In this document: positions 15,166 through 54,570 of the stretch, one piece after another
Position numbering within the stretch: the stretch's first letter is position 1
Layout of the letters: every line of letters starts with the position of its first letter
DNA from: Chrysomallon squamiferum
Lineage: Eukaryota > Animalia > Mollusca
DNA: 64,000 nucleotides
Direction of reading: 5' to 3'
NCBI GenBank assembly: GCA_012295275.1
Contig: CM022671.1
Location: 24,862,001-24,926,000 of the forward strand
The notes under the pieces: generated by a model
Database searches by the model: none
What the model was told of the DNA's origin: nothing
The model's input: only the letters and a program-made list of their open reading frames with translations
Translations under genes and position numbers: made by a program

Positions 15166-16201
15166 ATGAATGAAAGTACTGTGAACTCAACAAAGCCGAC
15201 GTTTGAACAACATTTATCATTAACTGTTATTGGTTGTTTCATAACTGCATGGGGATTTTCTAACAACGTCTTCATGTTGTTGATTCTCGAAAAGTCCGGT
15301 ATGTTTCGTGAAGTAGTAGGACACTTCATGGCCAGTGAAGTGCTTGCGGACATGTCACTCGCTTTAGTTACTGAAGTGCTTATTTTAATTGACCTTAGTT
15401 CCCAAAAGTAGTTATCGTGTTCTCGTTAGCAACTGGACTGTCAGGGGTTAAATGTTTATCTTTAGCAGGACTAAGTATCGTTTTGAGCATTGCCATTTGC
15501 AATCCCATCCAGTACAGAATTCGACTTACAACGAGAAAAGTCAAAACATGTTTGGTTTTAACCTGGATGTGGGTTCCTGTTGTTATCACTTACATTCAAA
15601 CAGAAGGAACGTTCTACAAACTGAATGACTATTCAAACAGAATTGATCCCAATTATACATGTGAGAATTGGTGGGTTGGAGCTCTTAATATGTCAGGCAT
15701 TGTCGGTGTTCCTCTGATTGTCATCAGTATATGTGTAGTTAAAATAGCTCGACGTCAGAAGGCTGCAGTTTTAACCAACTGTTACTACAAAAGCGCAACG
15801 GAAAGTAAAATTCGATTAGCCAAATTAAACACTGTCATTTTTATTTTTCATGTCTTGTCACAACTACCTTTCCATATAGTTAATTCTCTGCATATCGTGG
15901 ATCCCAAAATACTGAATTTAATACTTTTGCTGTACTTCATGTATCCTTCGATGAAACTCTTCATCTATTTAGTTATGATGCAAAGCTTCAGACGAACGGC
16001 AGCGAAGATTTTAGATGTGGTTATTGTAAAAAAGAGAAAAGACAGAACTGTCAAAACTCTGATACAATAAATAAGGTGTATCATATTACAAAGGAAAAGC
16101 AGATAGGGCGTACTGACAAAAGACAGATTAAAGGTTTTGAATTAAAGACAGGAGAAACAAGTACCGCAACTGATGAATACGTCATTCACAGTGGCACGTA
16201 A
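15166..16201 (+). CDS. Intronless rhodopsin-like 7TM receptor, copy A1 (two -1 frameshifts as assembled)
   Basis: Co-linear with intact A3; 1-nt losses near 15408 and in a T-run at 16009-16012; corrected frame ends ...DEYVIHSGT* at 16201. Confidence 0.8.
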
Positions 16202-18214
16202 TTGTCAACTCAGAATAAAATATTTTAGGAATCTGCTAGAGGTGAAAAAAAAAAAAGTAAGAAAGAACAAAAGAACAGAAAACAAGAATAAAGCTCTATC
16301 AGCTTTGTAATTAAAACTATCTATGAAGTTAACGACACATCAACTAAAACTACAATAATAATGCATAAAATATTGTTGTCATGATTAAGAGATATCTAGT
16401 AGCCGATTTCAAACCTGGTTTATTTGCTGTCGTCAGTAGTCTTCGTTCAGTCAACAACATAAATCCACCATCGTAGACAGAAGTTTTCAAAAGTCTGATA
16501 ACTGGAGGAGTTTTTCACTCACAGATGTCTGATCTGCGATTTTACTGGTATGATTTAAGAAATGAGGATGGAAAGCAGTAACCGATGAACTGCTCTTTCT
16601 TTGACTTGTAACAATTGATCATTCATACGCATCTTTACTCAGGCAGGAAAATACTTACCACAGCCTTTATAATCCAGCATTAATGAATAACAGAAATAAA
16701 TATATGTTAATACTATTATTATTTTAAAACTAACAACATTAATGTACTTCAAAATATTCATATAACAGCGGAAATTAAAGCCAGATTCGAAGGTAACACA
16801 GATGATATTAAACTCGAGAATAAATCTTAGGGTTAATGATTGTGAATACATTCAGGTTTATAAACATATTATATTTAATAATAATAATAATAATAATACA
16901 TTTTTTATTATAACTTTGTAGTTTTGGAATTATCTATTTTATTTATTATAAAGAATGAACATTCATTTTGTTACGTACGATTGTAAGATAAATTATGCAC
17001 TCGGAATATCAAATTGTTTTCATTAATTATTCTTGAATATTTGTTTTAAAACCATTAACATTATTTTTATAATGTTTATTTCAGATACCAAACCATTTAT
17101 GCCGCTTCCAGGAAACCGTAATTACCAGAAATCTGGCTTTAGATGTCAGTTAATTAAAATAATGTTTTTTACTTTTCACTGTTTCTTTTACATTTTAAGT
17201 ATATATTAAACTTCGGTTCAGGATACCAGAAATTTAGGAATCCGGTTTGATAACTGAATAAACGGTTTGATAACTGTATTTACTTTTTTTTGGACAGTAT
17301 ATAAATATCTGTAACTGATTAATTTTCTATACACAGTCACCTATTATAATCTGAAATATTTATTCATAAATTTATTGTTATTATTATTATTATGATCCTC
17401 ATCATGAGTCGCACTTTCTTGACAACACGTATAATCTGTCCGCACCTCCAAACACCGGCTCTGCTGAGTTCACAGTTCTTTCATTCATGTCTTCTTTTAT
17501 AAAAAATGTTTTGCCCAAATCAGATTTGATGGCTTTCAGTCATTTTTCTTTTCTTTTTTATCCACCCCCTTTTTTTTCAAGTGTCGAGATATTATTATCA
17601 TTTAACGATCAATTTTGCTCATTTTCTGTGAGCAGCAAATAATAAATCAACAATTACATTTACAATATTATTATTATCTATGAAAAGAAAATTTCAGTTA
17701 CAGATCTGTCAATCAAATTACTTTAAGAAATCATAGTCACATTATCCAATGAAATGCCTCCAGTTTTCACTAACTAATCGAGGTGGAATCTAAGATTAAT
17801 ATAAAAGATACTGCAACGTTAAGTAAAATTAACATTTTTGTTTGTTTGTTTGGATGCAGAGTTTAATGACTGTAATGACAAATTGTTATTGTTGAAGATA
17901 AATTCGTTATCAGTAGCTTGTGAAAAGGAACTAACATATAAGGTTGTTACCAGAATGAACTTTATGAATGTGAGGAAATAACATTGTTAGTAACCAATAA
18001 AGCAAAACTTTTATAATAAAAAACAATCTGCAGAAATTTTAATAAAAATGCAAAAGTTTTATTTTTGAGGTTAAAATAGAAGAAAAAAAAAATTAGCATA
18101 GTATATGTGATTAATATTTCGACACTTGAAAAAAAGGGGAACAAAAAGAAAAGAAAAATGATTGAAAGCCATCAAAACTAATTTGGGCAAAATATTTTCT
18201 TTATAAAAGAAGCC

Positions 18215-19253
18215 ATGAATGAAAGTACTGTGAACTCAACAAAGCCGACGTTTGAACAACATTTATCGTTATCTCTTATTGGTTGTTTCGTAATTGCATG
18301 GGGATTTTCTAATAACGTCTTCATGTTGTTGATTCTCAAAAAGTCTGGTATGTTTCGTGAAGTAGTAGGACACTTCTTGGCCAGTGAAGTGCTGGCGGAC
18401 ATGTCACTGGCTATAGTTACTGAAGTGCTTCTTATAATTGGCTTCCGTACCCAAAATCTCATTATCGTTATGTCGTTAGCAACTGGACTGTCAGGGGTTA
18501 AATGTTTATCTTTAGCAGGACTAAGTATCGTGTTGAGCATTGCCATTTGCAATCCCATCCAGTACAGGATTCGGATTTCAACGAGAAAAGTCAAAACATG
18601 TTTGGTTTTAACCTGGATGTGGGTTCCTGTTGTTATCACTTACATTCAAACAGAAGGAACGTTCTACAAACTGAATGACTATTCAAACAGAATTTGATCC
18701 CAATTATACATGTGAGAATTGGTGGGTTGGAGCTCTTAATATGTCAGGCATTGTCGGTGTTCCTCTGATTGTCATCAGTATATGTGTAATTAAAATAGCT
18801 CGACGTCAGAAGGCTGCAGTTTTAACCAACTGTTACTACAAAAGCGCAACGGAAGGTAAAATTCGATTAGCCAAACTAAACACTGTCATTTTTATTTTTC
18901 ATGTTTTGTCACAACTACCTTTCCATATTGTTAATTCTCTGCATATCGTGGATCCCAAAATATTGAATTTAATACTGTTGCTGTACTTCATGTATCCTTC
19001 GATGAAACTCTTCATCTATTTAGTTATGATGCAAAGCTTCAGACGAACGGCAGCGAAGATTTTTGGATGTGCTTATTGTAAAAAAGAGAAAAGACAGAAC
19101 TGTCAAAACTCTGATACGATAAACAATGTGTACTATATTACAAAGGAAAAGCAGATACAGAGTGCTGACATAAGCCAGATTAATGGTTTTGAATTAAAGA
19201 CAGGAGAAACAAGTACCGCAACCGATGAGTACGTCGTTGGCAGTGACACATAA
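18215..19253 (+). CDS. Intronless rhodopsin-like 7TM receptor, copy A2 (one +1 frameshift as assembled)
   Basis: ORFs 18215-18697 and 18675-19253 join if one T is removed at 18693-18695 (AGAATTTGAT vs AGAATTGAT in A1). Confidence 0.82.
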
Positions 19254-20312
19254 CAGTCAACTCAAAATAAAATATTTTAGGAATCTGCCAGTAAGAAAGT
19301 AAGAAAGAACGAAAGAACTAAAAACAAGAATAAAACTCTCTCAACTTTATAATTAAAACTATCTATGAAGTTAACGACACATCAACCAAAACTACAATAA
19401 TAATGCATAAAAAGTTGTTGTCATGCTTAAGAGATATCTAGCAGCCGATTACAAACCTGGTTTATTTGCTGTCGTCAGTAGTCTTCGTTCAGTCAACAAC
19501 ATAAATCCACCATCGTAGACAGAAGTTTTCAAAAGTCTGATAACTGGAGGAGTTTTTCACTCATTAACAACTGAAATTTTTGTATACTTTGCAGTATTTA
19601 AGGTAAATTCAGCGGTAGCAGTTAAGGAAGAAATAGTTTGCGAACTCGCAAATGCTTCACACACGAGCGAAAGGAATTATGTCCTGGGAGTGAGACGTGA
19701 AGGAGAAAAACGCGAAAATTACTCAAAATAAAAGGAAATTTAATTGGAAGTTTTTGATACAGACTCGAAAATGAATTATACACAACTAATTTAATAAACA
19801 CTGCTATGAGCCCCTAAATAGTGCAGCTAGTAGCAAGCGATGTCTTGAGCATGACAATAATTAATTAATGTATTTATGCCGTAATAAATATACTAGTATA
19901 TTATTTATAAATATTTGTTTTTCTAATGAGCGTTTGTAGTGATCATTTGAAATATATTTGATAAAACTGTGTCTGATGGCTTCATTAAAAATAAATTGAC
20001 TAAGATGATGTATTGATAATTCATAAAACCTCCACGTGTGAAAATGTATCTTAGAACAGTAAAACAACTCAGAATTAATCAAAAGGTGGGTAACGGTTGC
20101 AGACGTAACTATGTGTGTATAACTTATAGAACAAAGCCGTAGACGTAATAGTGATGTGGCAAACTTTCATGTAGTTCATAAAATCAGCTAACTTATCATT
20201 GCTACTACTTGTATAATTGTAATGAGAATAAATCTTGGGGTTAAAGATTTTGAGTACGTTCAGTTTCATAAACATATAACAATAATAATATTAATAATAA
20301 TAATAATAACCA

Positions 20313-20352
<40 letters not shown>

Positions 20353-21166
20353 GTAAACATAATACATTCGTTAACAATTAACAAATTTTTCTCATAAATT
20401 TGTAGTTTTGGAATTATCTATTTTATTTATTATTAAGAATGAACATTCATTTTATTACGTACCTTTGTAAAATAAACCATACAATCGGAAAATGAAATTG
20501 TTTCATTCATTATTGTTAAGTATTTTTTTAAAACCATTAACATTATTTTATTTCAGATACCAGACCATTTATCCTGCTTCCGGGGAACCGTAATTACCAG
20601 AAAACTGGATTTAGATGTCAGTTAATTAACATAACGTTTTTTTACTTTTCACTGTTTATTTTACATTTTAATTATATATTAAGCTTCGGTTCAGGATACC
20701 AAAAATTCAGAAATCCAGTTTACATTCGGGCCGAATAAATGGTTTGATAACTGCAATTACTTTTTTTCATTAAGACAATATAAATATCTGTAAATGATTA
20801 ATTTTCCTTACAGAGCCACCTATTATTGGTAGAAGTAATATTTTAATCTGAAATATTTATTTATTTGATTATTTAATTATTAATGTAATTTAATTTAATT
20901 TAATTAATTTATTTATTCATTTTAAAATAGTCACAATCTATAATTTATCCTTACTTATTTAAAAGAATTTCCACTCAGAACTTTCGTTTCTAATGAAAGC
21001 AATAAAGAACTACATTTTATTAATATAGCAAGCATTATGTACGTACAAGATTATATATTTTAATAATTATATACCAATAATATTTTTAAAAAAATGCCAT
21101 TTACAAATATGAGTGCTTAGAAAATGTTTGAAATATAAATAATCATAAGGAAAAGCGCGTGAACAA

Positions 21167-21478
21167 GGATATATTTCAAAATAAAGCTTGTGGTATCACT
21201 GGATATATTTCAAAATAAAGATTGTAGTATCACTGGATATATTTCAAAATAAAGCTTGTGGTATCACTGGATATATTTCAAAATAAAGCTTGTAGTATCA
21301 CTGGATATATTTCAAAATAAAGCTTGTGGTATCACTGGATATATTTCAAAATAAAGCTTGTAGTATCACTGGATATATTTCAAAATAAAGTTTGTAGTAT
21401 CACTGGATATATTTCAAAATAAAGCTTGTGGTATCACTGGATATATTTCAAAATAAAGCTTGTGGTATCACTGGATAT
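21167..21478. repeat. 34-bp minisatellite, 9 full units plus a partial unit (GGATATATTTCAAAATAAAGCTTGTRGTATCACT)
   Basis: Units start at 21167, 21201, 21235 ... 21439, head-to-tail with no spacers. Confidence 0.95.
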
Positions 21479-22897
21479 TCGTTTCCATCAAAGATAATAG
21501 ATTTCTCATTTGCATCCAGTAAAAACATTTGAAGCAATGAAATACACACATTCTTATAGAAACACAGGTGCACACGTAAATACATACATACAAACAAACA
21601 CATACATTCATATATACATACATATATAAATACACGCACACATACAACCATACAAACATACATACATACATATATATATATATATATGCAAACATACATA
21701 CACAAACGTTAAAGATTATAAACAAGATCAGCACAACACTGTTCAGGACGTGGTAACTGACGAAACATTTCAACAATAAATTATTCAGTTTGTAATTCGT
21801 AAAAAGCTTTCAAAGAACCTGTGATATCTGGATATATTTTCGGTTAATGTACTCTAATTATATCAGATGTCATTGTAGGTCCACATTAAAAGCTGTGAAA
21901 GGAACGGATGTTAACTGACACAGAAGAAAAATCAACTATTTGTTGGTCAGTTTGTGTTCATCGTCGAAGATTAAGCAGAGACATTTTAAAATATACATCG
22001 AGAGAAATCAGTGCAGGTAGACATTAACTGTGTGAAAAGTACGGACATTAATGGATGTAACAAATAAATCAGCTACGGAGGATGTTCATCAAATTACGTC
22101 CCGTTCCATTTAAACATAACCATAGGAATCAACGTGTAAAGCTGATGAACGTTCTGCTGCATTCGTGTAATAAAGAAATAAACAAAAGTTTATTTTTATT
22201 TTGTTACATTTCACACAAATTCTATCTAAATCTTTGAAAAATGATTTAGTCGACAAAAAAAAAAAATAATAATAAAATACGTGCTGATTACCTCCCTTTC
22301 ATGTTTGTGTCTGATTTGTTTATAGCAAGTGCACAAAAAGTAAGAGTCGCTTTAACCATTATAACAACTTTTACATTTCTTAATGGTATTTATCATCATC
22401 ACTATCATCATCATTATCATCATCATCACTATCATCATCATCACATTCATGAAAAGAAGAAAGGAAAGACACTAATTAAAAAGAAGATTATAAATTACAG
22501 AAAATTGTTATTTTTATTTTATTTTTTAAATTTATTTTCTTTATAGCAATGGATTATAAATAAATATGTTAGTACCTTATCAAATTGTTGAAGTTTAGTC
22601 AAGTTCCTTTGAATATTGTACAGAACTTCCATGACTTAAATAAGTATTTAAAAAAAATATTGAAGAAAAAACATTAATTAAATGATGATCAGTTAGAAAA
22701 CATTGCATTAAAAAGAATGAGAGAATGAAAATAAAAATAAAATAAAGCAAATTAATTTGTCTTGCTTTTTTTCCCAAACACATTATTTTATTGATGAAAG
22801 AAATAATTATACTCATGTAAAAAAATTAAATTTATTTTTTCTCTGATAACAACAAGCAGGAAATAATGTTGTAAACTCGGTCTGGTCGAAGCATACA

Positions 22898-22931
<34 letters not shown>

Positions 22932-23529
22932 CATACATACATACATAAAACATAATAATATATATATATATATATATATATATTTCATAATCATTTTATA
23001 TATACATATAATGTATATGTAAAAAAATACATATATACATAAGTAAAATCATACATACATAAATACATACATACATACTAAGAACATATGTATGTATATA
23101 TCTGATTATCTGAGATATGTTGATCGTTTTAATATATAGACACGCATACTTTCATATATACATACATGCAGACATAAATAAATACGTACATACATACGTA
23201 CATAAATACATACATACATAAAACAGATATATGTACATATATACATAGACATACATACACACATACATACTCATATACACACATAAATATAGTGTACATA
23301 CATAAATTCATAAGATTATACATACTTAAAAACACATACTCTCATACACACATACGTACTTGCACAGATACATACAGATATACATTTAAATCCTAAAATA
23401 TATACTAGTCAGTGCCAGGTTTCCCACAAAACAAAAAAGATTCACGCAAAAATGTTTAAAGACAAAGAACTGCGTGCTTCGTGGGAAGCGATGATTTCCC
23501 TCGGTTACTGAGCAACCTTTGTTAAGTTT

Positions 23530-23745
23530 GTCTAGATAGCCGAACGGTAACATCGTCCACCTTCAGAGTGGTGGACAAATGGGTGACATACGTTCGAATC
23601 TCATCAGCGGCATCTGTCGGGGTTTATGAGGTGGTGATTGGATTTTGCCCTCCTGCACCAGTGCATTCCCGAATATATGATTATGTGCAGAGAAAAATCA
23701 GGCGTACCTAAGACAGAAAATATTCAAATCCTTAAATACGTACAA
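23530..23745 (+). mobile_element. tRNA-derived SINE copy
   Basis: Pol III A box TAGCCGAACGG (23537-23547) and B box GTTCGAATC (23592-23600); body homologous to the minus-strand copy at ~44340-44545. Confidence 0.7.
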
Positions 23746-24910
23746 AAATACATTCGTGTCTATAATAAATACATATATTAAGCTTACAAATAGGATCAAT
23801 ACACCACTATCAAGAACATCTGAAAGCTTTTGCAATGCCTTTGATAACGAGACATAATTTAAAGTTATGTATTCTAATTTACTGTAACCGTCGCAGGTTC
23901 CACTGGAAGTAGATATTAAAGGGGCGAAAGGAACTGTGTTCACATAAAAAATAAATCAGCTACGTAGGATGTTCATTCGTATTCAGTATTCAAAATTACG
24001 TCCGAATATATTTACACATAACCGTACAAATCAGTGTATGAAGCTGTATTCATCTGATGAATAAACAGGAACGTTTCATTTTACTGCGTAGTATTTCACA
24101 CGAATTCTGCAGTCACTGAAGAAGGAAAGGGTTGAGAAGAAAAGTACTGGTTATCTCTCTTTGATTTCATTGTTTGACCTTTTTCCAGTAAGTACCCAAA
24201 AAGCCATTACACAGTTTTTACCTCATTTATTTATTTGTTTATTTATTGTTATTATTATTATTATCATCCTCATCATGAGTCATACATTCATGACAAAATA
24301 TATAATCTATCTCCACCTCTTCATTATCTAATATATCATTTAACGATCAATTTTGTTATGTTTCTGTGAGCAGCAAATAATAATAGTCAACAACTGCATT
24401 TACGATATTTTTATTATCTACGAAAAGAAAATTGCAGTAACAGAACTGTCAATCAAATAACTTTTAGAAATCATAGTCACAGTATCCAATGAAATGCTTC
24501 CAATTTTCACTGCCTAATCGGGGTGGAATCTAAGATTAATATAAAAGATACTGCAACGTTAAGTAAAATGAACCTTTCTTGTTGCTTGTTTGGATGCAGA
24601 GTTTAATGACTGTAATGATAAAATGATATTAGTTGAAGATAAATTCGTTATCATTAATTTGTGGAATGGAACTAACATATAAAGTTGTTAGAGAACAGAA
24701 TTAACTTTACGGATGTGAGGAAATAATACTGTTAATAACAAAGAAAAAAAATATTTGTAATTAAAAACAATCTGCAGAAATTGTAATAAAAAAAAAAAAA
24801 TTTTTCATTTCTGAGCTTAAAAATGAAAAAGAAATACCATAGTATATGTGCTTAATATTTCAACACTGAAAAAAAAAAAAAAAAAAAAAAAAAAAGTTAT
24901 AAAAGAAGCC

Positions 24911-25948
24911 ATGAATGAAAGTACTGTGAACTCAACAAAGCCGACGTTTGGACAACCTTTATCGGCAACTGTTATTGGTTGTTTCATAACTGCATGGGGA
25001 TTTTCTAATAACGTCTTGATGTTTTTGATTCTCAAAAAGTCTGGTATGTTTCGTGAAGTAGTAGGACACTTCTTGGCCAGTGAAGTGCTGGCGGACATGT
25101 CACTGGCTGTAGTTACTGAAGCGCTTCTTGTAATTGGCTTCGGTAACAAAAATATAGTTATCGTGGTATCGATAGGAACTGGACTGTCAGCGGTTAAATG
25201 TTTATCTCTAGCAGGACTAAGTATCGTGTTGAGCATTGCCATTTGCAATCCCATCCAGTACAGGATTCGGATTTCAACGAGAAAAGTCAAAACATGTTTG
25301 GTTTTAACCTGGATGTGGGTTCCTGTTGTTATCACTTATATTCAAACAGAAGGAACGTTCTACAAACTGAATGACTATTCAAACAGAGTTGATCCCAATT
25401 ATACATGTGAGAACTGGTGGGTTGGAGCTCTTAATATGTCAGGCATTGTCGGTGTTCCTCTGATTATCATCAGTATATGTGCAGTTAAAATAGCTCGACG
25501 TCAGAAGGCTGCAGTTTTAACCAACTGTTACTACAAAAGCGCAACGGAAAGTAAAATTCGATTAGCCAAATTAAACACTGTCATTTTTATTTTTCATGTC
25601 TTGGCACAACTACCTTTCCATATAGTTTATTCTCTGCATTTCGTGGATCCTAAAATAATGAATTTAACAATGTTGCTGTACTTCATGTATCCTTCGATGA
25701 AACTCTTCATCTATTTAGTTATGATGCAAAACTTCAGACGAACGGCAGCGAAGATTTTTAGATGTGCTCATTGTAATAAACAGAAAAGACAGAAGTGTCA
25801 AAACTCTGATACGATAAATAAGGTGTATCATATTACAAAGGAAAAGCAGATACAGCGTACTGACAAAAGCCAGATTAAAGGTTTTGAATTAAAGACAGAA
25901 GAATCAAGTACCGCAACTGATGAGTACGTCGTTGGCAGTGGCACGTAA
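24911..25948 (+). CDS. Intronless rhodopsin-like 7TM receptor, copy A3 (intact, 345 aa)
   Basis: Seven hydrophobic segments; GxxNN (TM1), VLAD (TM2), AICNPIQY (ICL2), W4.50, P5.50, QLPF (TM6), IY...FRR (TM7/helix 8); N-terminal NES/NST sequons; GCCATG start context. Confidence 0.9.
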   Translation: MNESTVNSTKPTFGQPLSATVIGCFITAWGFSNNVLMFLILKKSGMFREVVGHFLASEVLADMSLAVVTEALLVIGFGNKNIVIVVSIGTGLSAVKCLSLAGLSIVLSIAICNPIQYRIRISTRKVKTCLVLTWMWVPVVITYIQTEGTFYKLNDYSNRVDPNYTCENWWVGALNMSGIVGVPLIIISICAVKIARRQKAAVLTNCYYKSATESKIRLAKLNTVIFIFHVLAQLPFHIVYSLHFVDPKIMNLTMLLYFMYPSMKLFIYLVMMQNFRRTAAKIFRCAHCNKQKRQKCQNSDTINKVYHITKEKQIQRTDKSQIKGFELKTEESSTATDEYVVGSGT

Positions 25949-29357: not shown

Positions 29358-29397
<40 letters not shown>

Positions 29398-30347: not shown

Positions 30348-30384
<37 letters not shown>

Positions 30385-33818: not shown

Positions 33819-34752
33819 ATGGCTACAAATGAAAACAACACTGCCGTAATAATAATACCAGTGAGTGTTATAGGATTCGGTTCATCCATTGTTTTTTGCG
33901 GTCTTTCAAACAATGTCTTCATTTTAATAATTCTTATAAAATCTAAAATGGCTGCGGACGTTGTGGGACATTTTATGGTCAATGAAATCCTGGCTGACAT
34001 ATTGCTGGTTGTAATAACAGCAGTAATGCTCAGTGTTGGCTTCTACACGCAAAACGTGATGATTGGATATGTTTTGGCAACAGGTTTCGCATCTGTTAAA
34101 TGTTTTTCTCTAACGGGATTAAGCGTTGTGTTGAGTATTGCTATTCGCGACCCGTTCAGATATCACGTTCATATTTCAGTGAAGAAAGTGAAGATATTTC
34201 TGGCGTTGACTTGGTTATGGATTCCTGTCGTGATGTGTTATGTATTTCTAGAAGGAACGTACTATGTGGTGAATGAATATTCTAAAAGAATGGACCCAAA
34301 TTACACCTCTAAAAACTGGTGGGTTGGAGCTCTGAATATGTCAGGTGTGTCTGGCGTTCCCTTTATTATCGTTACTGTCTGTGTTGTTAAAATTGTCATA
34401 CACCAGAAATCTGCCATTTTGAACAAACGTACTAACAGTAAAATAACGGAAAGCAAAGTTCGTTTGGTCAAGTTAAACACGATCGTGTTCATATTTCACA
34501 TTTTGTCTCAAGTTCCACTTCACATCATTTTTTCTCTACACACAGTGGAACCGCACATTACTGAACTCAACGATTTTGTTTTATTTCATGTATCCGTTGA
34601 CGAAACTCTTTTTGTATTTAGCTTTGATGAAACATTTTAGACGTACGTCAATGAAAATGTGTGGATGTGACTGTTCCAGCAAAAGAGACGATACAAAGAT
34701 AGCGGCGATTTCTGTTAAGGCAAAGGAAAACGTCCAGCTGGATATTGTATAA
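33819..34752 (+). CDS. Intronless rhodopsin-like 7TM receptor, copy B1 (one +1 frameshift as assembled)
   Basis: Nearly identical to B3; extra G at 34547-34548 (GTGGAAC vs GTGAAC); corrected frame gives YPLTKLFLYLALMKHFRR...NVQLDIV*. Confidence 0.8.
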
Positions 34753-35929: not shown

Positions 35930-39160
<3,231 letters not shown>

Positions 39161-41681
39161 ACAGTGAACCGCACATTACTGAACTCAACGATTTTGTTTT
39201 ATTTCATGTATCCGTTGACGAAACTCTTTTTGTATTTAGCTTTGATGAGACACTTTAGACGAACGGCAATGAAAATATGTGGATGTGACTGTTCCAGCAA
39301 AAAGACGTCAGTAAAGTCGGTGGCGATAGCGTTTAGGAGAAACATGGATTATAATATGAGTAATGTTCAACTAAATACTTTGACAGCAGCAGAGTAGAAA
39401 TTCTTCAAAATTTGCAGCTGTTTAAACAAGATTTTAATGGAGGAATTGATATAAGGGATTCTCAAACAGTTAACATACAAAACGATAATAATGCTGTTAA
39501 CCGAACTATGAGCTTGACCGTTGAAAACAAATCTTTGGAAATTACTGAGTTCATCATCAAAGAAAATAAATTTCTTGAATGGATGAATACTTGATGTCAA
39601 AGACACTCTAGCAGTCTGTGAAATGATTGTACCAATTTAGTAATGTAATTTTATGCTTCATAATTTCTGAATTCCCTGAATACGTAATTGTTCCTAGTTT
39701 TCGTTGTTTCTCTTTACTTGTTATCAGTAGTACTTAGTAGTTTTTCACAAATACAGTTATGTCCACGGCTTTTTGTTTTTCTTAAATGTTACTTAACTAG
39801 CAATAAACTGGTTAACATCACCTTAATTTTTAACATTTTGTTTATTTTAATGATAATGATAATTATTTGTTTTAAATTTCTTACTTTTTTTTATTTATGT
39901 CAGAAATATTTATAATCAGTTATTTTAAATATTTAACACTTTTACAAAAAACATGTTTGTCACTATATGTTTAAAATGTCTAACTCTTGTTTCAGAGATA
40001 TTTATAGCTATTTATTTAATATGTTTAACACTTGTGGTTTTTTTTTTTAAAGAGCCTTCTATTCGCATGACAGAAATGCGGAAAATCTAGAAAATCGGTT
40101 ACTTTTGTATTACACGTGCTTTGTTTTAGCTTCCGTGACGCCAGATCAAACTAAAAGTGTCACCGTGTATATGTTATCTTATCACAATAAGTTATTATTC
40201 ATTCTCGTTTTTATTTATTATCATTTCTAAAAAAAAAAAAAAAACTAGCAGAACCAACTTGCTTATGAAAAGTGTATTATATACTGGTATTTTATGAATT
40301 ACAGATTATTTGATAAATATCGAACAGACTCGGCTTTAAAACTGTGTTAATCTTTATCTGTTAAATTTTGTATTTTTCGTTTATGTTATGTTTTAAGTAA
40401 AGATTTAGCATCTGTGCAGAAATTCGACAAAACGAGAAATTCGTGCCATCTCAAGTCCCGAGTTTGCCGAGAGATTGTCCGGTGCCTCTGTAACTATTTG
40501 TTTCAATTTTTTAACTTTCTGTTTTACAACAGCTCAGCAAATTTTATTAGTTGATGTCGTTTAGCATGATAATGATAAGCTTCGGCTGTTCTTTCTGATT
40601 AACAGCAAATAATCTTTTATAGACAGGAAATCAGACACTACGGGGTTTTAAATTGAATTTAAACAGCTGTCCATAATTTTTGTCACTGAAAATAACAGTG
40701 CTTTACTCAACGATGTTAATACAAAAATGAATGCGGATATGTCCAGTATATGCGTCTGTTCACTGTGAATAATATTTGTGAATAAAAACGTATAAAATAT
40801 TATTATTTTTCCAGCTGTCTGTGACAGTTAAAGATTAACAAAGGGAATAACAGCGGTTCATTTGTCACCATACGATTTACAGTCGAAATAAAAACGCATA
40901 ATGTTTTGTGAAACGGCCAGCATTTTTTTTGAAAATAAATTAGAAAAACAAAATGGACGGGGTGCTATTTTGAGCATCCGGCGAAGACGACTACCAAACT
41001 TTAACTGGCTTTCTGTACAAATTTTGTTTTTACTTTTTGAATCTGACATTAATGAATTTTGTACTTGTACCCCATATACACTTGAAAATCTCAACTTTAG
41101 AGAAAATGCGATAACTTTACAATTACCCCCAAAATGATGATGCACAGATATGTTTAAACTGTGTTCTTTTGTTTCTGTATTTTACTATTAACAGACACAA
41201 CAAAAAAAAAAAAAAAAAAGACCACAAAAAAATATAATAATAACAAAAAAAACCAGAACAACAAACAAAAAACCCAGAACAACAAACAAACAAAACCAAC
41301 ACAACACAACAGAATCAAAACCAAAGCAAAAAAATTTGAAAGTCTTTAGAATATATTTAGCCTATTTCTTCTTATCATCAAAGATACATTTTAAAGATAA
41401 GAACCGTAAAATTAACTTTTTAAAAGTCTGTAATATTAAAAGCCATTAAACGGTAAAACTGAGAAAGACGAAATTTTGCTACTGACAGAGGTCTTGATTC
41501 TAGACATAGAAAATATTTTGACTTTCCTACGATAACCCAGACAGAATCGTCGATGATTAAAACAGGCATATCATTCACAAACGAGGACTGAAGATTAAAC
41601 GGACTGCAAAATAAATATAAAAATAAGTTATAGGTAAAAAAATAAATTACACAATAATAAATAAATAAATAAATGAATGAA

Positions 41682-41736
<55 letters not shown>

Positions 41737-41829
41737 AATACAAATATATAAATAAATAAACAAATAATGAAAAAAAAAAAAAAATGAAGATATTCAAACC
41801 AAAGGCGACAACAAAAAGCGAAAAGGAAA

Positions 41830-42330: not shown

Positions 42331-42469
42331 ATTAATTTGTTGTTCTTGTTATTATTATTACTGTTATTATTAAAAGTTTCTTTTCCTATTAAAAAATGAC
42401 AATAAAATAGAAAACAAAAGAAAGAAACTGATTATAATGAAATAAGAATATTCCCTTTAGAAACTGTAC

Positions 42470-42621
<152 letters not shown>

Positions 42622-43819: not shown

Positions 43820-43858
<39 letters not shown>

Positions 43859-43930
43859 TTCGTTTTAACTTTGAAAAAAGATAATTTTATAGTCACAAGT
43901 AAATATTACAATGGAGCTGTATTGAATGAA

Positions 43931-43977
<47 letters not shown>

Positions 43978-44339
43978 ACCGAACTTGTAGTGGAATATAA
44001 GCTGGAATTAATTAATCCATATCATCCATATCATCCAACATAAAACACTAAACATCTTACTCTATTGCAAGAACCGTAAATATGGACGACATCTGTCGTT
44101 GTAATAATATTATTATCAACATTATAACACAAACTCTATCTCGAGTTAACTCCCCGTATACAGTCTATTGCTAGTTTTATTTTTTCATTTAAAAATTAAC
44201 ATTTAAAACAATTTACGATGGAAATAACATCACATATGTTCAGTGTTGCACATTTTCAGATGGTCCAAGTAATGGCGCGCAAGATAACAGGATTTGTTTC
44301 CATTCAGAAAAACAATAAATTGTTAGAAAATATGTATGT

Positions 44340-44545
44340 AATTTTTTAAAGATTTTAAATATTCTCTGTTTATACTTAGGTCTGATTAGACTCTGCACGT
44401 AGAAAATATTCAGGAACGGACAGGCACAGGAGGACAAAATCAAAAACAGGACGTCAAGTCCCCGCCGGATTCCGGTGATGAGACTCGAACGTACGGCACC
44501 CGTACTCTAAAGAAGGAAGAAGTGACGGTCCGGCCAAGAAGACAA
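44340..44545 (-). mobile_element. tRNA-derived SINE copy (same family as 23530-23745); extra 3' fragment at ~44655-44705
   Basis: Reverse complement has A box-like TGGCCGGACCG, B box GTTCGAGTC, then tcatcaccggaatccggcgggg...gattttgtcctcctg...gtgcagag...acagagaatatt matching the 23.6-kb copy. Confidence 0.7.
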
Positions 44546-47401
44546 GCCTAAGAAAGTCTGCTCAAAAACCGATGGTAATCATGGCTTCCCCCGAAACACG
44601 CTGTTCTTTTTGTCTTTCGTATTTTTTGCGGGTGTCTATTTTGGGGATATGTATTTTCGGATTTTGAATATTCTCTGTCATATATGACTAGACTCTGCAC
44701 ATATCAGTCTTCCTAGGTATGTATGTATGTATGTATCAATCTATGTATGTATGGATGTATGTACGTACGTATCTAAGATAAATAAAGGAAAAGAATAACA
44801 CGAAATCAGGTCAGATGAAATACACTTTAAATATTTTCCATTGCTAAAGATGAAATAGAACCATGGTTAGAAATCTAAAGAATCAACGCAGAAGAGCAAA
44901 TCAAATTTCAGAATAAATATTCCGAGGCAAGGGATTTTATTTAATCTTGTAGGAAAAGAGAAAAAAAAACAAAAATTTAAATCAGAACCATTACTCACCC
45001 GAAAGATGAGGAAGGTGATTTTGAAGTCAAGTGTAATATCCCGTTGCTTTACAGAATTCTGAACAGAGGAGATATGTTCTGTCGAGGAATTGGAAATTCT
45101 GGAGATAATATCTCATTCAGTGAACATAAATACCATAAAGATGTGTAAGGAAATAATACAATTTGGTATCACCGTAAATGGATATATCTAAGGTAGCTAT
45201 ACTGGGAATTAGCATAGTCGCTTGTCTGTGGATTTCAGATGGTATTGTTTACTAGAATAATAAACAACGCTGTAAATAGATTTTTTCAGTTGTACTTGTT
45301 TTACTGCAGAGATTGTGGCAAACGGAACCCCAGCGGATGTCTCACCAAGGTGACCAATAAAGAATCATTGCAAAACTGTTTACCAAGAAAACACTGATGG
45401 ACGAAACCACTCACACACATTATTGTAATCAGCCTCTAAACTGATTCTAACAAAACGAACATTTAGAAATTTTCAGTACTGCAAATCATCCCGTTTTTCA
45501 AATGCGCTCAACATTTAGTGACACGGTAAAGTACAAAATGAATAAAAACATTTTACTATGTATATGGTGTCACCATTGTTGCTGCTGCTACTATTGCTCT
45601 TGTTACTACTACTACTACTACTACTACTACTTTATTAGTACTGCTTGTACAACTGTAACAAATACTACTACAAACTGTACTACTACTCCATCGTGAAAAA
45701 CTATAACATTACGTTATTAATAACTATACTAAGTAAATTAAGCCCTTAACAACAACAACAACAATAATAATAATTTTATTATTACTACTACTACCACTAC
45801 GACATAAAATATTGATATGAGGAAGATATTACGAATTTAAAAAAATATATAAATGGATTTTATCATCCTTGTAATATTCATGAAAAGAGAAAAGCATTAT
45901 TTGTAATTTAATTTCCTTTATATATTTAAAACCGTAGATAGATGATCTATAAACCTTGTAATATGTTTTTATATATACATTAATGTTGAAAGAGTAGTAT
46001 ATACTTTTTCTACTTTAGTTTCTTCTTGCAGGATATTTTTAATAGTTCTTTCAAATCCTTTTATACATTACAATTCAGTTATAATTTATAATTTCAATTA
46101 CACAAACGATTCAGTTAAAATATTTTTTCCATACTTAAATTCTGTTTTTTTTTTTTTTTATATGTTATCAGAATTTTTTTTTTTTCAAATTATAAAGAAT
46201 TAAATAAATGTATTTGTACTTCATTATTTCGTCTTAATATTTTTTTCAAAGATAATGACTATTTTATTAACAAAAGAAATAATGTGACTGGTTTCTAACA
46301 ATAACGTTAATTACAAGATAGGATGAAACTAACTACATACAAACACAGATACATAAATAACGCAGAGAAATACGGAGATTTTAAGACAGGCTGTGTAAAA
46401 CCTATAAACCAGCAGTTGAAACGTAGATTATGATTCTTTTCAGAGAAAAATATAAAATAACAAGAACATAAAATATCATTGCTTATCTAAAAAAAAAAAA
46501 AAAAAATAAAAATAAAATGGATCGCAAAACTAATTGCTAATATTTTCTACTAGTACTGTTTACTTGATGAAACGAGAATCTTTCATAACATCACTTTTAT
46601 GAAGTACAGCTATAAATATATCATACTTAAATTAATACATATTCGTTGATAAAATCTTTGTATTAATTTTTAAAATATTTAAAGTTGATCCATATCTTAA
46701 TATAATAAATCTGTCATGTGGTCTCTAGTTATGGCTCAAAACACAGCCAATAACCGAATCACTGAACTCTTTCTATATTTACTGCAAAGCTCCAACCATT
46801 AAACTTCCACAACCCATAAAAAAATAACGTAAGTTAATAAAAATTAATTAATATGGAATATTTTTATAATAACTTATTTCTGTTTTCCATTAACATAATA
46901 ATAAGAAGAAACATTATAAGTAAAAAATGTCTTCTAATTTTTATATATATATATATTTCAAGGTTTCATAAAGATAATCGCAAATACATTAAGATAATGA
47001 AAAATGCAACCCCATTAGCATCAACTAAATAAAACAACAACACACACACACATATGTTTACTTGTATGGTATTAAACTGACATTCGCCGCAAATGAATGA
47101 CATTATCTTAAGTCTGGGAAAGAGGAAGTCCGTGAATTTGTTATCAGCATTTGTTTGATGAAAATATATTGTGTATCTTCCCTACATAAAGTCAAATGAA
47201 AACAGTCAGAAGCACACAAAGAAGAAAAAGAATAAATTTATCTCAGTGAGAAAGCAATTTACTATTATTTTTTCTTTTGAAGAGTAAGAAATTGTGGAAA
47301 GCTATTTTTTACCTTGACTTAAATAACGTTTACTGTGTTTCACTGAAGACGCTGTACAGAGATTTTGTTGTACAGGTAATTTAACTTTAACCAGAGTCGT
47401 C

Positions 47402-48335
47402 ATGAATCACAACATAACCAACATATCTACTGCCTTTTCTGAATATATTTCATTGGTGGCTGGTTCACTTGCAACGTGGGGATTTTCAAACAATTTGTTC
47501 ATATTGCTGATACTTTTCAAATCCAGGATGTGCTATGACGTTATTGGAAGATTCATGACGAACGAAGTTTTGGCTGACATAGGCATAAACATAACAATCG
47601 CGTCATTTCTCGCCTTTGGTCGATTTAACTCGAAAATGCGGATTATATTAGCTTTTAGTAACGCTTTCTCAATCACCAAGTGTTTTTCGCTAATGGGATT
47701 AAGCATTGTGTTGTGCATAGCCATCTGCGATCCTTTCAAATACCAGATTCATATTTCAGTCAAACGAGTGATGATCTACTTGGCAGGGATCTGGATATGG
47801 GTTCCCATATCTCTGACTTACATTCTTTTGGAAGGTACATTTTTTTGCAGTGAATGAACAATCCGGGAAAATGGAAACGAACTATAACTCTAGTAACTGG
47901 TGGGTTGGAGCAATTAACGTATGCGGTTTAGTTGTTTTTCCTTTAATAGTTTTAACAGTTTGCGTGATAAAAATAATTCTACACCAGAAATCTGCCATTT
48001 TGACCAACTGTTATAACAACAGTGCAACAGAAAGTAAAATTCGTGTCGCTAAATTAAAAATTATAATTTTTGTAATGCATATCATGTCTCTGTTACCTTT
48101 TCACATTGTCCGTGCTTTGCATATCAGAAATATGGTAATAAGTATTTTTATAATTTTGCTTTCTTTGATTTACCCTGTGATGAACGTATTTATTTACTTA
48201 ACTCTGATGCGAAATTTCAGAAACACTGCAAAGAAACTTTGCTGTGGATTTCGTGAAATTGCCAAAACAAGCGACAATAAAAAGAATGAAGATACAAAAA
48301 TTAGCAGAGTGAAGCTGCAAACTCTTTGCAGCTGA
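47402..48335 (+). CDS. Intronless rhodopsin-like 7TM receptor, copy C1 (one +1 frameshift as assembled; 310 aa corrected)
   Basis: ORFs 47402-47857 and 47850-48335 join if the T7 run at 47840-47846 is T6 (EGTFFAVNEQSGKM, cf. EGTYYVVNEYSKRM in family B). Confidence 0.82.
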
Positions 48336-48807
48336 GTGTTAGGAAAGCCATCATTGTGAATAGCAATAGTGATATGAATATTTATTTATTTATTATTATT
48401 ATTATTATTTTAGTCTTTTTAAATTTATTATTATTTATATATATATATATTTTGCAAAACACGTTAAAGAGGATGTAGAAGATAAAACTAATTTTAGTGC
48501 AAGTGGTTTTGCTCAAGAGAAAGACAGTTCAAGTGAAAAGTGGAATGGTGCATAATCCAGGATGTTATGATGGTTTATTCCCGAATCTGGCAGTGAGATT
48601 ATAACACATCTTAAATGGACACGCCATTTGTTCTATTCCGTTATGATATGAATTCTGCAAATACTATTTTCCATCGCAGGTTGAATGTCTGGTCTTGAAA
48701 TCGTCATACTGTAACAACATAATTACTAATAAGTATGATAACATTATGGTTTATATTATCGTTCATTGGGGTGCCAGGTATAATGTATATACATTCGTTG
48801 ATTTTTA

Positions 48808-48880
<73 letters not shown>

Positions 48881-51800
48881 TACTATTATTACTGTAAGTA
48901 ATTGTTTGATGTATGTAATAACAGTTTCGTAACAACCAACTTCGTATGTGAAATGCTACGTCTATCATCAAGAAAACCACCAGAATAAAAAATGTATTAC
49001 GTTTTGAACAGCGTGCTTTTCATTTAATTATTCTCTACGAGTGTAACTAAGATGTTTATGAAACAGCAAGATTGTAACTAAGATCTTGATCTAATGGCAA
49101 GAGTGTATAACGATGCCGATAAAACATCCTGATATAACAACGCAACATAATAGATAGACAGACAAACAAACAGATAGTTGGATGAATAGATAGATGGATT
49201 GATAAGTATGCGGACACACACACACACACACACACAGATATATATATTGAACGGTAGAAAAAGTATCTATAGGCTGAGTAAGCAGTAATGCGAGCTGGTT
49301 CTGAATACACCTTTGAGTGTAATAAATTAGAATGTGCATTTAAAGATGCTAAAAATTTTTACTATGAAATCAGCTAAGTGTAATTTTTGTTCATTACACC
49401 CTGTTATACATTATCCGAAATACCTTTATATTTCAGTTATAATTTTACAGATTACTAAATTATTATCTTTTTTCCCCATTGCTAATATTTATTGATTTTA
49501 TATATATATAATATAAAGAAAATAACAAAACAAAACAAAAATTCAAAAAAATTCGAGGCACTGATTTCAAAGTCCTGACCAGCTATTATTAATTTGTTAT
49601 GAACAAAACTGTATCTGATCCTGATGTCTAATTCGAATTCCTTGTAGAACAAAAGAACAATCTATACAGTCGTTAGCACTGTCAACAACAGCTCGCAGTT
49701 TTGCAACTGCGATCTCTTCTTAAACAATGATGGCAGTTTGCACGTAATTAGGCTTCCGCATGAGATGAAATGATTGACCTTCTGTGAAGGCTTAATAAAG
49801 AATGATGATATGATTCTTGATGTTGCTATAACAAGAAAATTATTAGTGTCTATTGATACGTATGTGAATTCACTGATTTATATTTGACGTTTTGCGTTGT
49901 CTAATGGAATTCGTTATAGTGGCAGAGTGACTCAAGAAAAACGACAAAATATCGAACTTTCAGTGCAGTCTAACGTGAAATTAATAGAAAAGTAGTTTTC
50001 ATGAAATCCACTGTGCTGACAGAAACATTTAGCTATGCTATATAAAATGTGGTGACCACTACCGGCAATTGTACGAAAACAAAAAATTTGGCAGAGACAG
50101 GCAAATTAAAAAATCTGAATGGATTGTCGATACACACAAACTTTCATACACTGACGTGTTAAGACACGGATCATTTTCAAGACACTTCAGAGTTTCAATG
50201 ACTGCATCATAACATGTTCCTGTAAAGGCGTTGTGATGGAAGTGTAAGCATATTCATACGCACATGCATGTTTGCATACATAAATAAATATATATATATA
50301 GATACATACATACATACATATATATACACACACACGTATGTACATACGTACATACATACATACACACATTCGTACACACTTACATTCTTGGACAAAGTAA
50401 TACAAATGCATATTGCAGAATGAATTAGTCAAGACAAGAAATATTACAGTGGAACATTAAAACACTAACACACTCAGAGTTACACAGGGAAACGCGGAGA
50501 CTGAAACTGAGGCTATTAAAAAGAAGCAATTAATCAACAATGGAAACGTAGATTAGGATCCTTTTCACAGATTAATGCGAAATAACAAGAGCGGTAAATA
50601 TACACAGTTAATATTTCACTTCTTGATTTTAAAAAACAGCCGAACAGTACGATACATTTCTGCTATTTCCTGCAGGCAATGTTTGCTCGACGAAACATAT
50701 ATTTAACCAACAAAGTTAAAAACAGAGACACATAAATATTTTTACGCAAAACGTATCTGAAATTCATGGCTAAAAGCTTTGTATTGATTTTAAAAATATT
50801 TGAAATAAATCCATATATTAACGTTATAAATGTGTCATCCAGTTTCTAGTTGTCGTTTTTAGTGACATTAGTGGTGATTTTGGTGCACATTCTGAAAGAC
50901 TGTTCACATTATCTAAATAAGTTGACAACTCAGCATCTGGAAAGTACTAAAATAATCAGGTTGCACTGTTGAGGAGAAAACAAAAAATTTGAAATGCTTT
51001 GTTGTTCATCACATAACCCGTGAATTCACCTGGGCCTTATTTCTGGAATTAAAATGTAATCATTTCAGAAGAAAACTCACCAGAAGATGTTAATTTTCCC
51101 TCCGATTTAATTAATATCTGCTCTTTCGTTGTTGTTGTTGTGTTATGGATTGTTGAAATTAATCCTTTTTATTGATGATTTTTATTTCATACATTTTTCA
51201 ATTTGAATTGTATAGATTTTTTGGGGAATTGTTTTTTTTTTTTTTAAATTGGTAATTATAATTTTTGCCTTGAAAGACACAGAATTCTTAATATGCAATA
51301 GTTTAAGTTTTTATTTTCAATTTACTCTCTTTCGTATATTTTCAGTTATGTTCAGAACGTTAAAAAAATAAATAAATAAATAAATGAAGAAGAAAATAAT
51401 TAGTTTTTAATTCATTTGAGTTACCTATGTTTGATCTGATCTTTAAGTTTCTTTCTGTATGGTAATTATATAATTTTAATTACAATTTAATTATCATGAT
51501 CGTCGTGTCTTTGACTGGTAAATAATTTTCGATAATTTTCATATCATCATCTGTTGAAGGACTGATCTAAATACAGACCATTAGACACGAAGATTTAACC
51601 ATGTGATCATTTGTCAAACGTTAATACGTTACCACCACGTTAGAAATTCATTGTTTTCACTGAAGTTTCTGGTAACTGTCATGTAACGAACCATTTCTCA
51701 TGTTAGCATTTGTTTTCAAGCTGAATTTTATTAGCAACGGAGGGACGATAGAGTGCTTACATTTATTGTTTTAGTTCATTTGAAGTGTACAATAATTTAA

Positions 51801-52419
51801 AATTAATAATTGTAATTATAATATCCATGCGTAAAAACAGAATCTGAGATGAGAGTAGCTTTAATAATTATAAAGTAATGTCTCCTTTATGAGTATCTAA
51901 AGCCAATAATTAAACATATAATACCAAATTTATAAACAAAGATATAATATCAAATCAATATGTAATAAAATAAACAAGAAACTTGGTGAATGTCGATAGT
52001 GTTCGTATACTTACTAGTCGAGATCAAATGCCAGTTCATTTTCTAAATTATCCTATTTCTTTAAAAAAACAGTCAACAGTCTAACAAAGAAAAGGAATCA
52101 GTTTTAATATATCAGCTGAAAAAGAAAAGAAAGCGGCCATGACATGATGTACATGTACTTGTAATATTATCTACCCTTTCACAACAGCAGATAAATATAA
52201 TTAAACTATCTTTCACTATGAAATTCAAAACACAGAAAGGTAAAGTCATTTTTATTTTATTTGTTAATTTTCTGGTCAGCCGTCGCTGAAGTATAAATGT
52301 AAAAACGATTTTTGAGGTTTATATTTATAGAAACACTACCAATTAGTTTGTTGTCTAAGTTGTCTTAATAAAAAAATCCGAATCCGAATTTTTTTTATTT
52401 TTATTTATTTATAAATAAT

Positions 52420-53160
52420 CTTGATGGTGAAAGAGTCCGAGCTTGTCTTGAGGAAGTGCGTTGTCTGGGTTTCATAATTACTTCCGTGAACACAGTACTA
52501 GCTGAAACAAAATATCGCAAAACAACTATTCTGGTTGGTTTATTCCCGAATCTGGCAGTGAGATTATAACACATATTAACTGGACACGCCAGTTGTTCCA
52601 TTTCTTGCAGTTTATTTCTCACCCTTACTAATTGGTGTTCCGTCACCTTAATTGATATACTTTTGTTAAACAGTATTTTGTCAGCAATTCTGTAACACTT
52701 TACACACGAAATGTCCCAGAAAGCACTCCACCGCAAGCTGAAAAATAGGAAGACGTGTCCCGGGTACAAGTGACGTACTCCAATCCCAGCTGGAAGAGCT
52801 TGTGCTTGTCTTAAGGTAGTATTTCCTGTCTCCAAATTTGACTGAGATAATAACATTAATTTCATGTCTCCAAACATTAATTTTCTTACAATCTCTATTC
52901 CGGCTCACCTCTGCTCCTCACTGCTCATTAAGGTTAATCTCGTTAATCGCCTCTTCTGTTCTTCACACATCTCATTATCCCCATGCGTCTGAATTGACCT
53001 TAATTGCTTACGCCAGTTTTCCCATTTCTAGAAGCGGATTACAACACCTCACCGCTTACCTAATCTGGAGGCTGCTAGTTTTGGGAACATACCTTCTCGT
53101 TTTAGGTCCTATCAGCAAAACCATTCTCGCTCGTCTAGGCTTTCATTTTGAATAGAAAAT
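52420..53160 (-). mobile_element. Possible decayed non-LTR retrotransposon ORF1 (gag-knuckle-like) fragment
   Basis: GC-richer, stop-interrupted coding-like block (KFGDRKYYLK, GHFVCK, ACPVNMCYN); a ~63-bp piece recurs at ~48570-48633, so it is a dispersed repeat. Confidence 0.3.
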
Positions 53161-54017
53161 AGGCGCCAGGATCGAGACTAACAAAAACGGTGAAAAGTGT
53201 TCAAAAAAAAAAAAAAAAAAAAAAATTGTAAACTAAGAATTATATTTATATTTTTATTTTTCTTTATTTTCACTGAAAAACATCCGAAAACCAACAAATA
53301 AAGTAAGCTTGGCCTAAAACAGTAATCTCAAGATAAACAAATCGTTACACTGACTGTATATTTACTAGAGAACGGTAACCATTAAATCTGCGTACTACAG
53401 GACAACCAATAAAAAACAAATAAAGTAATAAAATATAATAAATCTCCAAAATACTTTTTATAATGTAATTTTGTTTTTATTACATTATTATAACAAAAAC
53501 ATCAAAACTAACAATGTATCCCAGCAACTGTCGTCTAAGTGTCTGCTTTTAATCATACCACACAAACATGCATGCTGTAGATAATTAAAAAAAAAAAATC
53601 ACGTAAATCGACAGTAACATGTATACGTTTTCACGTCTGTCTACTAATCGAATGCTTTCTTCTTCTGGCCGATAGGAATTGTGTAGTACTGACTGACAGT
53701 CATCGAAAATGAACGAAATCATTTTAAGTCTGGAAAAAAGGTGGTCCATGAATTTATTATCAAGCATAAGTGTACGGTCGATGGAAATATACTGTGTACT
53801 TTACTTATATAAAGAAGATCAAAGTTTCTAGAAACACAGAAAGAAAGGAAAGTTTTAAAAGGATCTCAGTATAAAATCATAAAACTATATATGTATAAAT
53901 AAAATAGTTGAAAAGTGTGAAACTAACTGTAAAAACTTAATTTAGCGTTTACTAGTTTTCACTGAAGACGCCATACAAAGCTTTTTACTGCAGTAATCCT
54001 AATTTAACTTTATCGTC

Positions 54018-54570
54018 ATGAATAACAACTTTTTCAAATTCTGGATATGTTTTATTCGTGACTGGTTCGATCTGTCTGGGGAATTTCGAACAATTGGTTC
54101 ATACTGTTGATACCTTTTCAAATCCAGGATGTGTTATGACATTATTGGAAGATTCATGGTGAACGAAGTTTTGGCTGACATAGGCATAAACATAAGAATC
54201 GCCTCAGTTCTCACCGTTGACACGACGAATAGCTGGCAACTAAAAATTATATTAACTCTTGGTTACGCTTTCCCAGTCATTAAATGTTTTTCACTATTTT
54301 TATAATACATATCTTGTCTCAATTACCTTTTCGCATTGTACGTGCTTTGCACATAAAATATATGGTCATCAGTATCGTCCTTAATTTTCATTCACTGATT
54401 TACCCTCTGATGAATGTTTTTTGTGTACTTAACGCTGATGCGAAATTTCAGAAACGCTGCAAAGAAACTTTGTTGTGGGTTTCGCAAAAGCGACGAAACA
54501 GGCGACAATAAAAAGTATCAAGATAGAAGGAGAAGGAAGCTGGAAACCGCTATACGCTTCTAACAGTTGA
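54018..54570 (+). pseudogene. Degraded 7TM receptor copy C2
   Basis: Homologous to C1 (FKSRMCYDIIGRFMVNEVLADIGINI; HILSQLPFRIVRALHI; YPLMNVF); several frameshifts and a ~370-bp deletion from TM3 to TM6; upstream ~330 bp aligns with C1 upstream. Confidence 0.88.

Follow-up and report, generated by a model that had tools for sequence, protein, structure and literature searches.

A tandem array of atypical class A receptor genes in the snail Chrysomallon squamiferum and its relatives in other gastropods

The array and its gene copies

A stretch of 64,000 nucleotides (nt) from the mollusc Chrysomallon squamiferum (GenBank assembly GCA_012295275.1, contig CM022671.1, positions 24,862,001 to 24,926,000; here called the window, and numbered from its first base) carries a tandem array of class A (Pfam 7tm_1) receptor genes. 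The array belongs to a real and maintained family of class A receptors in gastropods, one that is apparently new to print and in which the sodium pocket is rebuilt. Searches of all six frames of the window with tblastn and with a family profile found exactly eight copies, all on the + strand between 15166 and 54570 and falling into three subfamilies (A1 to A3, B1 to B3, and C1 and C2), as had been described in the original prediction, which a model made from the sequence alone.

That prediction also took the copies to be single-exon genes. The eight-copy array stands, but only A3 (24911 to 25948; 345 amino acids [aa]) and B3 (38447 to 39397; 316 aa) are intact open reading frames (ORFs) in the assembly, and B2 and C2 are broken. 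Five 1-base frameshifts interrupt four further copies: A1 (15166 to 16201) has two, at about 15403 and 16008; A2 (18215 to 19253) has one at about 18693; B1 (33819 to 34752) has one at about 34547; and C1 (47402 to 48335) has one in a run of seven Ts at about 47840. When read through, A1 and A2 each encode 345 aa, and B1 and C1 each encode 310 aa; the breaks in A1 and A2 are likely to be assembly errors. B2 (36991 to 37682), positioned where a local duplication unit common to B2 and B3 ends, is likely a pseudogene: it has a 19-nt deletion in transmembrane helix 6 (TM6), ends after TM6, and is missing TM7. C2 (54018 to 54570) is a pseudogene with a 374-nt internal deletion, from TM3 to TM6, and other indels. 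In the same searches a short piece of an A-type 5′ end turned up in inverted orientation, on the − strand at 17449 to 17594. The genes are organized as in chemoreceptor families: they are intronless and in tandem, and they include recent duplicates and pseudogenes.

We checked the frameshifts against short-read contigs from four of eight listed runs, aligned over the A1-A2 and C1-C2 regions. At 15403 an extra base was present in contigs of three of the four runs, and one of these contigs showed no other difference from A1. The one run that covered 16008 likewise had an extra base. At 18693 a base was dropped in both covering runs, although these contigs may merge A paralogues. At 47840 a base was dropped in three of the four runs, at full depth in X4, at about half depth in X1 and X7, and not at all in X2. 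The frameshift was thus absent from read contigs at all four sites tested, and because of this A1, A2, and C1 are probably intact. Contig depth over C1 was raised, but it is no measure of copy number and was not used.

Selection was assessed as the ratio of nonsynonymous to synonymous substitution rates (dN/dS), calculated by the Nei-Gojobori method over the core with breaks read as X. Between subfamilies dN/dS was 0.16 to 0.30, with bootstrap upper limits of 0.27 to 0.45 and dS near saturation. Among recent duplicates the values ranged from 0.4 to 2.9, with wide intervals; B2 and B3 differ by 14.5 nonsynonymous and 1.5 synonymous differences. The array is under purifying selection between subfamilies, with tandem birth and death.

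Among A1 to A3, substitutions were found at 25 of 100 extracellular positions and at 13 of the 144 positions that lie in the core or on the intracellular side (P = 0.001). They were densest at TM2, extracellular loop 1 (ECL1), and TM3 (14 of 28 positions versus 24 of 238 elsewhere). Identity among A3, B3, and C1 was 0.57 on the intracellular side and 0.36 on the extracellular side. The conservation of the cytoplasmic face suggests a conserved cytoplasmic partner.

Receptor fold, relatives, and altered motifs

Pfam 7tm_1 scored above its curated cutoff in all three window proteins scanned (33 to 46 bits versus 30.5). The class A anchors N1.50, D2.50, W4.50, P5.50, and P6.50 (generic receptor numbering) are present in all six full-length copies. 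An alignment of 81 rows was used for an AlphaFold model of B3, which shows a seven-helix bundle followed by helix 8 at a predicted confidence (pLDDT) of 90. It matched class A structures with Z scores up to 25.6 and root mean square deviations of 2.9 to 3.3 Å over 264 to 274 residues; the Foldseek TM score was about 0.7, and Z was about 25 to A2A, SSTR2, and alpha1A. AlphaFold tends to return the inactive state; hence, the finding that inactive-state structures were the top matches was not counted as evidence. The class A scaffold proposed earlier is confirmed by the profile, the anchors, and the model.

The original prediction had allowed that structural alignment might shift the register and restore equivalents of R3.50 and NPxxY. 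B3 aligns with the nociceptin receptor without gaps from 3.39 to intracellular loop 2, with L3.43 and S3.47 in place, so that the B3 sequence VLS falls on DRY and Lys91 on S3.39. When the family profile was aligned with histamine H2, the residues Y, K, L, and Y fell on N7.45, N7.49, P7.50, and Y7.53. No gaps are needed to set VLS or VLC against DRY, or KLFxY against NPxxY, so the register is correct. A shift restoring R3.50 or NPxxY was rejected on the basis of these alignments and of the lack of Arg anywhere from 3.43 to 3.54 in the family.

Relatives came from profile searches only; when the A3 protein alone was used in a word search, none of the 2558 candidates was a homologue, and a search of the ESM Atlas with the Gigantopelta aegis homologue returned only generic 7tm_1 clusters. 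A profile search that covered 1.84 billion representatives returned 81 hits, of which 10 had E ≤ 1e-10; two later profile searches added 15 further members. When the family profile was run on 88 sequences, 25 (seeds included) scored at least 253 bits and 63 scored at most 101, a clean split. These searches were nonexhaustive, and the family has at least 31 members in the databases: 24 named (one from G. aegis and 23 from four species of Haliotis) and 7 unnamed. Several abalone members lie on one chromosome-length contig. The public labels (melatonin-, somatostatin-, opioid-, and adenosine-receptor-like) misname these genes.

The G. aegis protein is 30% identical to B3, and the window copies cluster with it and with the sequence P0001 (99 by the approximate likelihood ratio test, SH-aLRT). 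The motif changes are common to abalones and Gigantopelta and are not, as had been supposed, lineage specific; judged from these sequences, the family is older than the split between abalones and neomphaline snails. That split dates to the Palaeozoic. Trees with other G-protein-coupled receptors set the family apart, but the support for the split varies, with an SH-aLRT of 99 in a quick IQ-TREE run of 50 rows versus 0.475 in FastTree with a 196-column core and 79 rows, in which two long-branch sequences were nearest. One class A receptor whose tree position is unstable, P0051, has NLY at the DRY site and a canonical NPxxY; either R3.50 was lost independently here, or P0051 is an early relative. 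An origin from GPR19 is unsupported (core identity, 0.18 versus 0.15 to 0.22 for other class A receptors). All 20 family rows tested matched 7tm_1 at E ≤ 0.01, and at that threshold none of the 20 matched the Pfam profiles for TAS2R, V1R, or olfactory 7tm_4 receptors. No description of the family was found in the literature searched, a scope that leaves most subscription journals and bioRxiv supplements outside. The suggestion that this is an expanded and possibly undescribed family of atypical class A receptors therefore stands, as expanded and as apparently undescribed in print.

Motifs were counted in 37 family sequences, including some near-duplicates, with 36 covered at several positions. 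Position 3.50 is L in 34, M in 2, and I in 1, and D3.49 is gone in all 37. Position 7.49 is K or R in 35 of the 36 covered sequences, C1 with N7.49 being the exception, and 7.45 is Y in all 36. Among 63 other class A hits used as a contrast set, R3.50 was present in 56, N7.49 in 57, S3.39 in 52, L2.46 in 57, and C3.25 in 52. In the six full-length window copies the earlier residue calls at 5.58, 6.44, 6.48, 7.45-7.46, and 3.25 were right, but what they mean has to be narrowed. The array was said to lack every canonical activation switch; R3.50 and the NPxxY network are indeed changed, but D2.50, P5.50, P6.50, and Y7.53 are retained in the window. H6.44 and V5.58, read as a shared signature, hold for the window copies but are subclade traits only: across the family 6.44 is Y in 23 of 37 sequences, with H6.44 largely confined to the window clade, and 5.58 is Y in 10 of 37 and F in 17 of 37. 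Y7.53 is replaced by F in 19 of 36 members. C3.25 is absent, as claimed, but the loss of the TM3-ECL2 disulfide is commonplace in gastropod chemoreceptor expansions (PMC11886862; statements from the literature, here and below, refer to the accessible parts of the papers cited).

The cytoplasmic side keeps A3.53, I3.54, P34.50, I5.61, basic residues at 6.30 and 6.32, and the helix-8 FR in all six full-length window copies. TM5 and TM6 are long helices in the B3 model, and the span from 5.58 to 6.37 is 32 residues in the window copies and 30 to 34 in the family (canonical receptors, 27 and up, with a median of 38). The C-terminal tails of the window copies have 6 to 13 Ser/Thr residues; some abalone members have tails of 19 to 26 aa with 2 or 3 Ser/Thr. 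Several of the abalone proteins P0010, P0084, P0085, and P0098 to P0103 have very long C-terminal extensions, giving proteins of up to about 780 aa, and the extension of P0010 is repetitive and rich in Pro and Thr.

The most telling feature, overlooked in the original prediction, is a sodium pocket rebuilt with basic residues. A basic residue is present at 7.49 or 3.39 in all 36 covered family sequences, and 2.50 is D or E and 2.46 is polar in all 36. In all eight members of the window clade K or R at 3.39 and E2.46 are present in addition to D2.50. A3 has E2.46 (E58), D2.50 (D62), K3.39 (K96), L3.50 (L107), H6.44, Y7.45, K7.49 (K264), and Y7.53, while C1, the sole copy with N7.49, retains K3.39 and E2.46 and so has its basic residue at 3.39. 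The conserved Lys lies 11 residues before F8.50, that is, at 7.49, and 7.43 is F or L in the window copies. Retinal binding of the opsin or retinochrome kind is excluded, since the lysine is at 7.49 rather than 7.43. Pseudopsins, regarded as the sister group of opsins, are described with conserved G-protein-binding motifs (PMC10097855) that are missing in the array family; the trees were built without pseudopsin sequences.

The lysine alone is not unique to the family, because an abalone GPR19 orthologue with an intact DRF has a natural K7.49 (KPxxY). Two sequences, P0031 (GPR19 by its source name) and P0038 (GPR19-like by motif), have this combination. GPR19 shares K7.49 with the family but differs from it in keeping R3.50 and P7.50.

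How the receptors may work

The same positions have been changed by design. In the M4 receptor, N7.49R forms a salt bridge to D2.50, mimics Na+, raises stability by 8 degrees, and almost abolishes signaling, and S3.39R in M2 behaves likewise (PMC7055379). N7.49K is a stabilizing mutation in crystal constructs of the oxytocin and V1b receptors, for which the reported effects concern yield and stability only (PMC7439316; 10.1101/2023.07.05.547888). The array family resembles these locked receptors in position and in the change of charge beside D2.50, but its substitutions are natural and conserved, and in one clade they are doubled and joined by a second acid, E2.46. From generic numbering and the engineered mutants we infer an internal lysine-acid lock: K7.49, K3.39, or both would take the place of Na+ by pairing with D2.50 and E2.46, giving a stable, sodium-independent off state.

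We tentatively favor, at somewhat less than an even chance, the reading that these are chemosensory-type receptors that are locked off by the lysine and engage G proteins in the absence of R3.50, in the manner of bitter taste receptors (TAS2Rs). The lysine would hold the receptor off until ligand binds, and the ligand-bound receptor would then signal to a G protein by a noncanonical, TAS2R-like route. An external ligand, expression in sensory epithelium, and a partner that is a G protein and not arrestin are presumed components of this reading. Because of the enrichment of changes on the ligand side, the conserved cytoplasmic face, the unshortened TM5 and TM6, and the tandem birth and death, the copies can be read as ligand-tuned sensors with a conserved partner, a pattern that the sequences fit. 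TAS2Rs are alike by analogy: they are without DRY and NPxxY, their sodium site has a basic residue built in, and they occur in intronless arrays, but their basic residue is at 2.50, whereas the array family keeps D2.50 and has it at 7.49 or 3.39. V1Rs are a case similar to TAS2Rs. The original prediction noted that R3.50 is part of the G-protein activation network of rhodopsin-family receptors. Absence of R3.50 is no proof that G-protein signaling is lost, because EHV2 ORF74, which has DTW for DRY, signals through Gi without R3.50 (PMC3414077), and TAS2Rs, without DRY and with R2.50 (PMC10392674, a modeling study), are G-protein coupled.

Several points weigh against this reading. Engineered basic residues at 7.49 or 3.39 silence canonical receptors (PMC7055379), and C5aR2, which has DLC and thus a native L3.50, fails to activate G proteins (10.1101/2025.11.01.685996). 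With L3.50, V5.58, and L7.50 joined to two lysines in the pocket, the ability to activate G proteins may be lost altogether. Beyond the window copies, P34.50 is kept by a minority (5 of 16 family members). Variability outside and conservation inside are general in class A and do not name the partner. Aplysia candidate chemoreceptors keep R3.50 as ERC (PMC2700072), and lophotrochozoan expansions of candidate chemoreceptors are described with DRY and NPxxY (PMC11886862).

Those expansions (Nath et al. 2025, PMC11886862; Aplysia AcCRa-c, PMC2700072) are otherwise close in kind: they too are 7tm_1, tandem, and single exon, undergo birth and death, have a variable ligand side, and are missing the TM3-ECL2 disulfide. 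The array family has L3.50, K7.49, and Y7.45 where they have DRY or ERC and NPxxY, and unlike the lineage-specific expansions of Nath et al. it spans gastropod orders. The ERC signature of the Aplysia receptors, as given in the accessible part of PMC2700072, is not found in the family, which has no Arg at the end of TM3. Family members may be present unremarked in the bulk data of Nath et al.; two family accessions were absent from the accessible part of their supplement (PMC11886862). The accessible parts of PMC10733189 and PMC13494238 contained nothing on this family.

Among other readings, the receptors could be G-protein silent, like C5aR2 and the atypical chemokine receptors, and work through GRK and arrestin signaling or internalization, or as scavengers or decoys. 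We consider this unlikely, though it has a good deal to commend it: L3.50 matches the DLC of C5aR2, F7.53 in about half of the family recalls its NPxxF, the family naturally carries two changes that inactivate when engineered, and the tails of the window copies carry 6 to 13 Ser/Thr residues. The tail, however, is poorly conserved and short in some abalone members, the family differs in its pocket lysines and multigene arrays, and no search made gave any sign of kinship. The arrestin-only and decoy receptors are single genes and are not known to form birth-and-death arrays, which counts against this explanation. TM5 and TM6 are unshortened in the family, unlike in C5aR2 and ACKR1 (10.1101/2025.11.01.685996). 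An old multigene family of snails and abalones held inactive by its own lysines and sensing ligands without any G protein is similarly doubtful; if true, it would be an expanded arrestin-only or decoy repertoire in an invertebrate, with a natural "sodium-mimic" lock.

The predicted permanent off lock, a stable fold modeled at high confidence, and a conserved cytoplasmic face would also be expected of nonsignaling partners, that is, locked seven-helix scaffolds that serve another membrane protein as coreceptors, chaperones, or modules for binding ligand; but the fast-changing ligand side and the repeated duplications suit ligand tuning better, and we regard such a role as improbable. There is a slim chance that the receptors are constitutively active or sodium insensitive, partly on through loss of the ionic lock and W6.48, with ligands acting as inverse agonists. 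D3.49 is lost throughout, GPR19 orthologues combine a natural K7.49 with an intact DRF, EHV2 ORF74 is constitutively active without R3.50 (PMC3414077), and sodium-site changes can yield constitutive or biased signaling; against this, basic residues at 7.49 or 3.39 stabilize the inactive state where tested (both PMC7055379). That the array is a decaying set of pseudogenes whose motif losses are neutral is very improbable. It holds for B2 and C2, and six of the eight copies are broken in the assembly while dN/dS among recent duplicates is high and imprecise, but for the family as a whole it is largely refuted by the low dN/dS between subfamilies, the same replacements fixed in 31 relatives, the absence of the frameshift in read contigs at every site tested, and the lack of premature stops in the six full-length read-through copies. 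The original view that the replacements are maintained rather than decaying agrees with the between-subfamily dN/dS and with the relatives.

The R3.50, NPxxY, and sodium network is regarded as near-universal in class A, and in the laboratory such receptors are turned off by introducing a basic residue at 7.49 or 3.39. Here the substitution is natural, has persisted in more than one gastropod order, and is doubled in one clade; the family is thus a ready-made test of whether, and how, a class A receptor can work in the absence of sodium and R3.50. Expression and signaling are testable in abalones, which are farmed and for which genomes exist.

Surrounding sequence

The window is AT-rich (26 to 36% GC) and rich in microsatellites. 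A gene whose exons lie on the − strand at 634 to 3225 encodes a chitin-binding CBM_14 domain (3043 to 3225) and EGF repeats (634 to 750); two near-identical EGF-like exons, near 1525 to 1644 and 2530 to 2650, lie in duplicated blocks. An ORF with a FLYWCH zinc finger (E = 5e-9), possibly a transposon remnant, is on the − strand at 13171 to 13494. Between A2 and A3, at 21167 to 21478, is a 34-bp minisatellite of 9.2 copies with 96% match. Very high-copy repeats, at which contig depth exceeds the background by factors of tens to hundreds, occupy 48350 to 48850 and about 52350 to 53100, between C1 and C2; a 167-aa ORF at 52401 to 52904 had no Pfam match. Beyond the array, 54956 to 59374 and 60753 to 63643 form a large inverted duplication with about 70 to 90% identity in several blocks.

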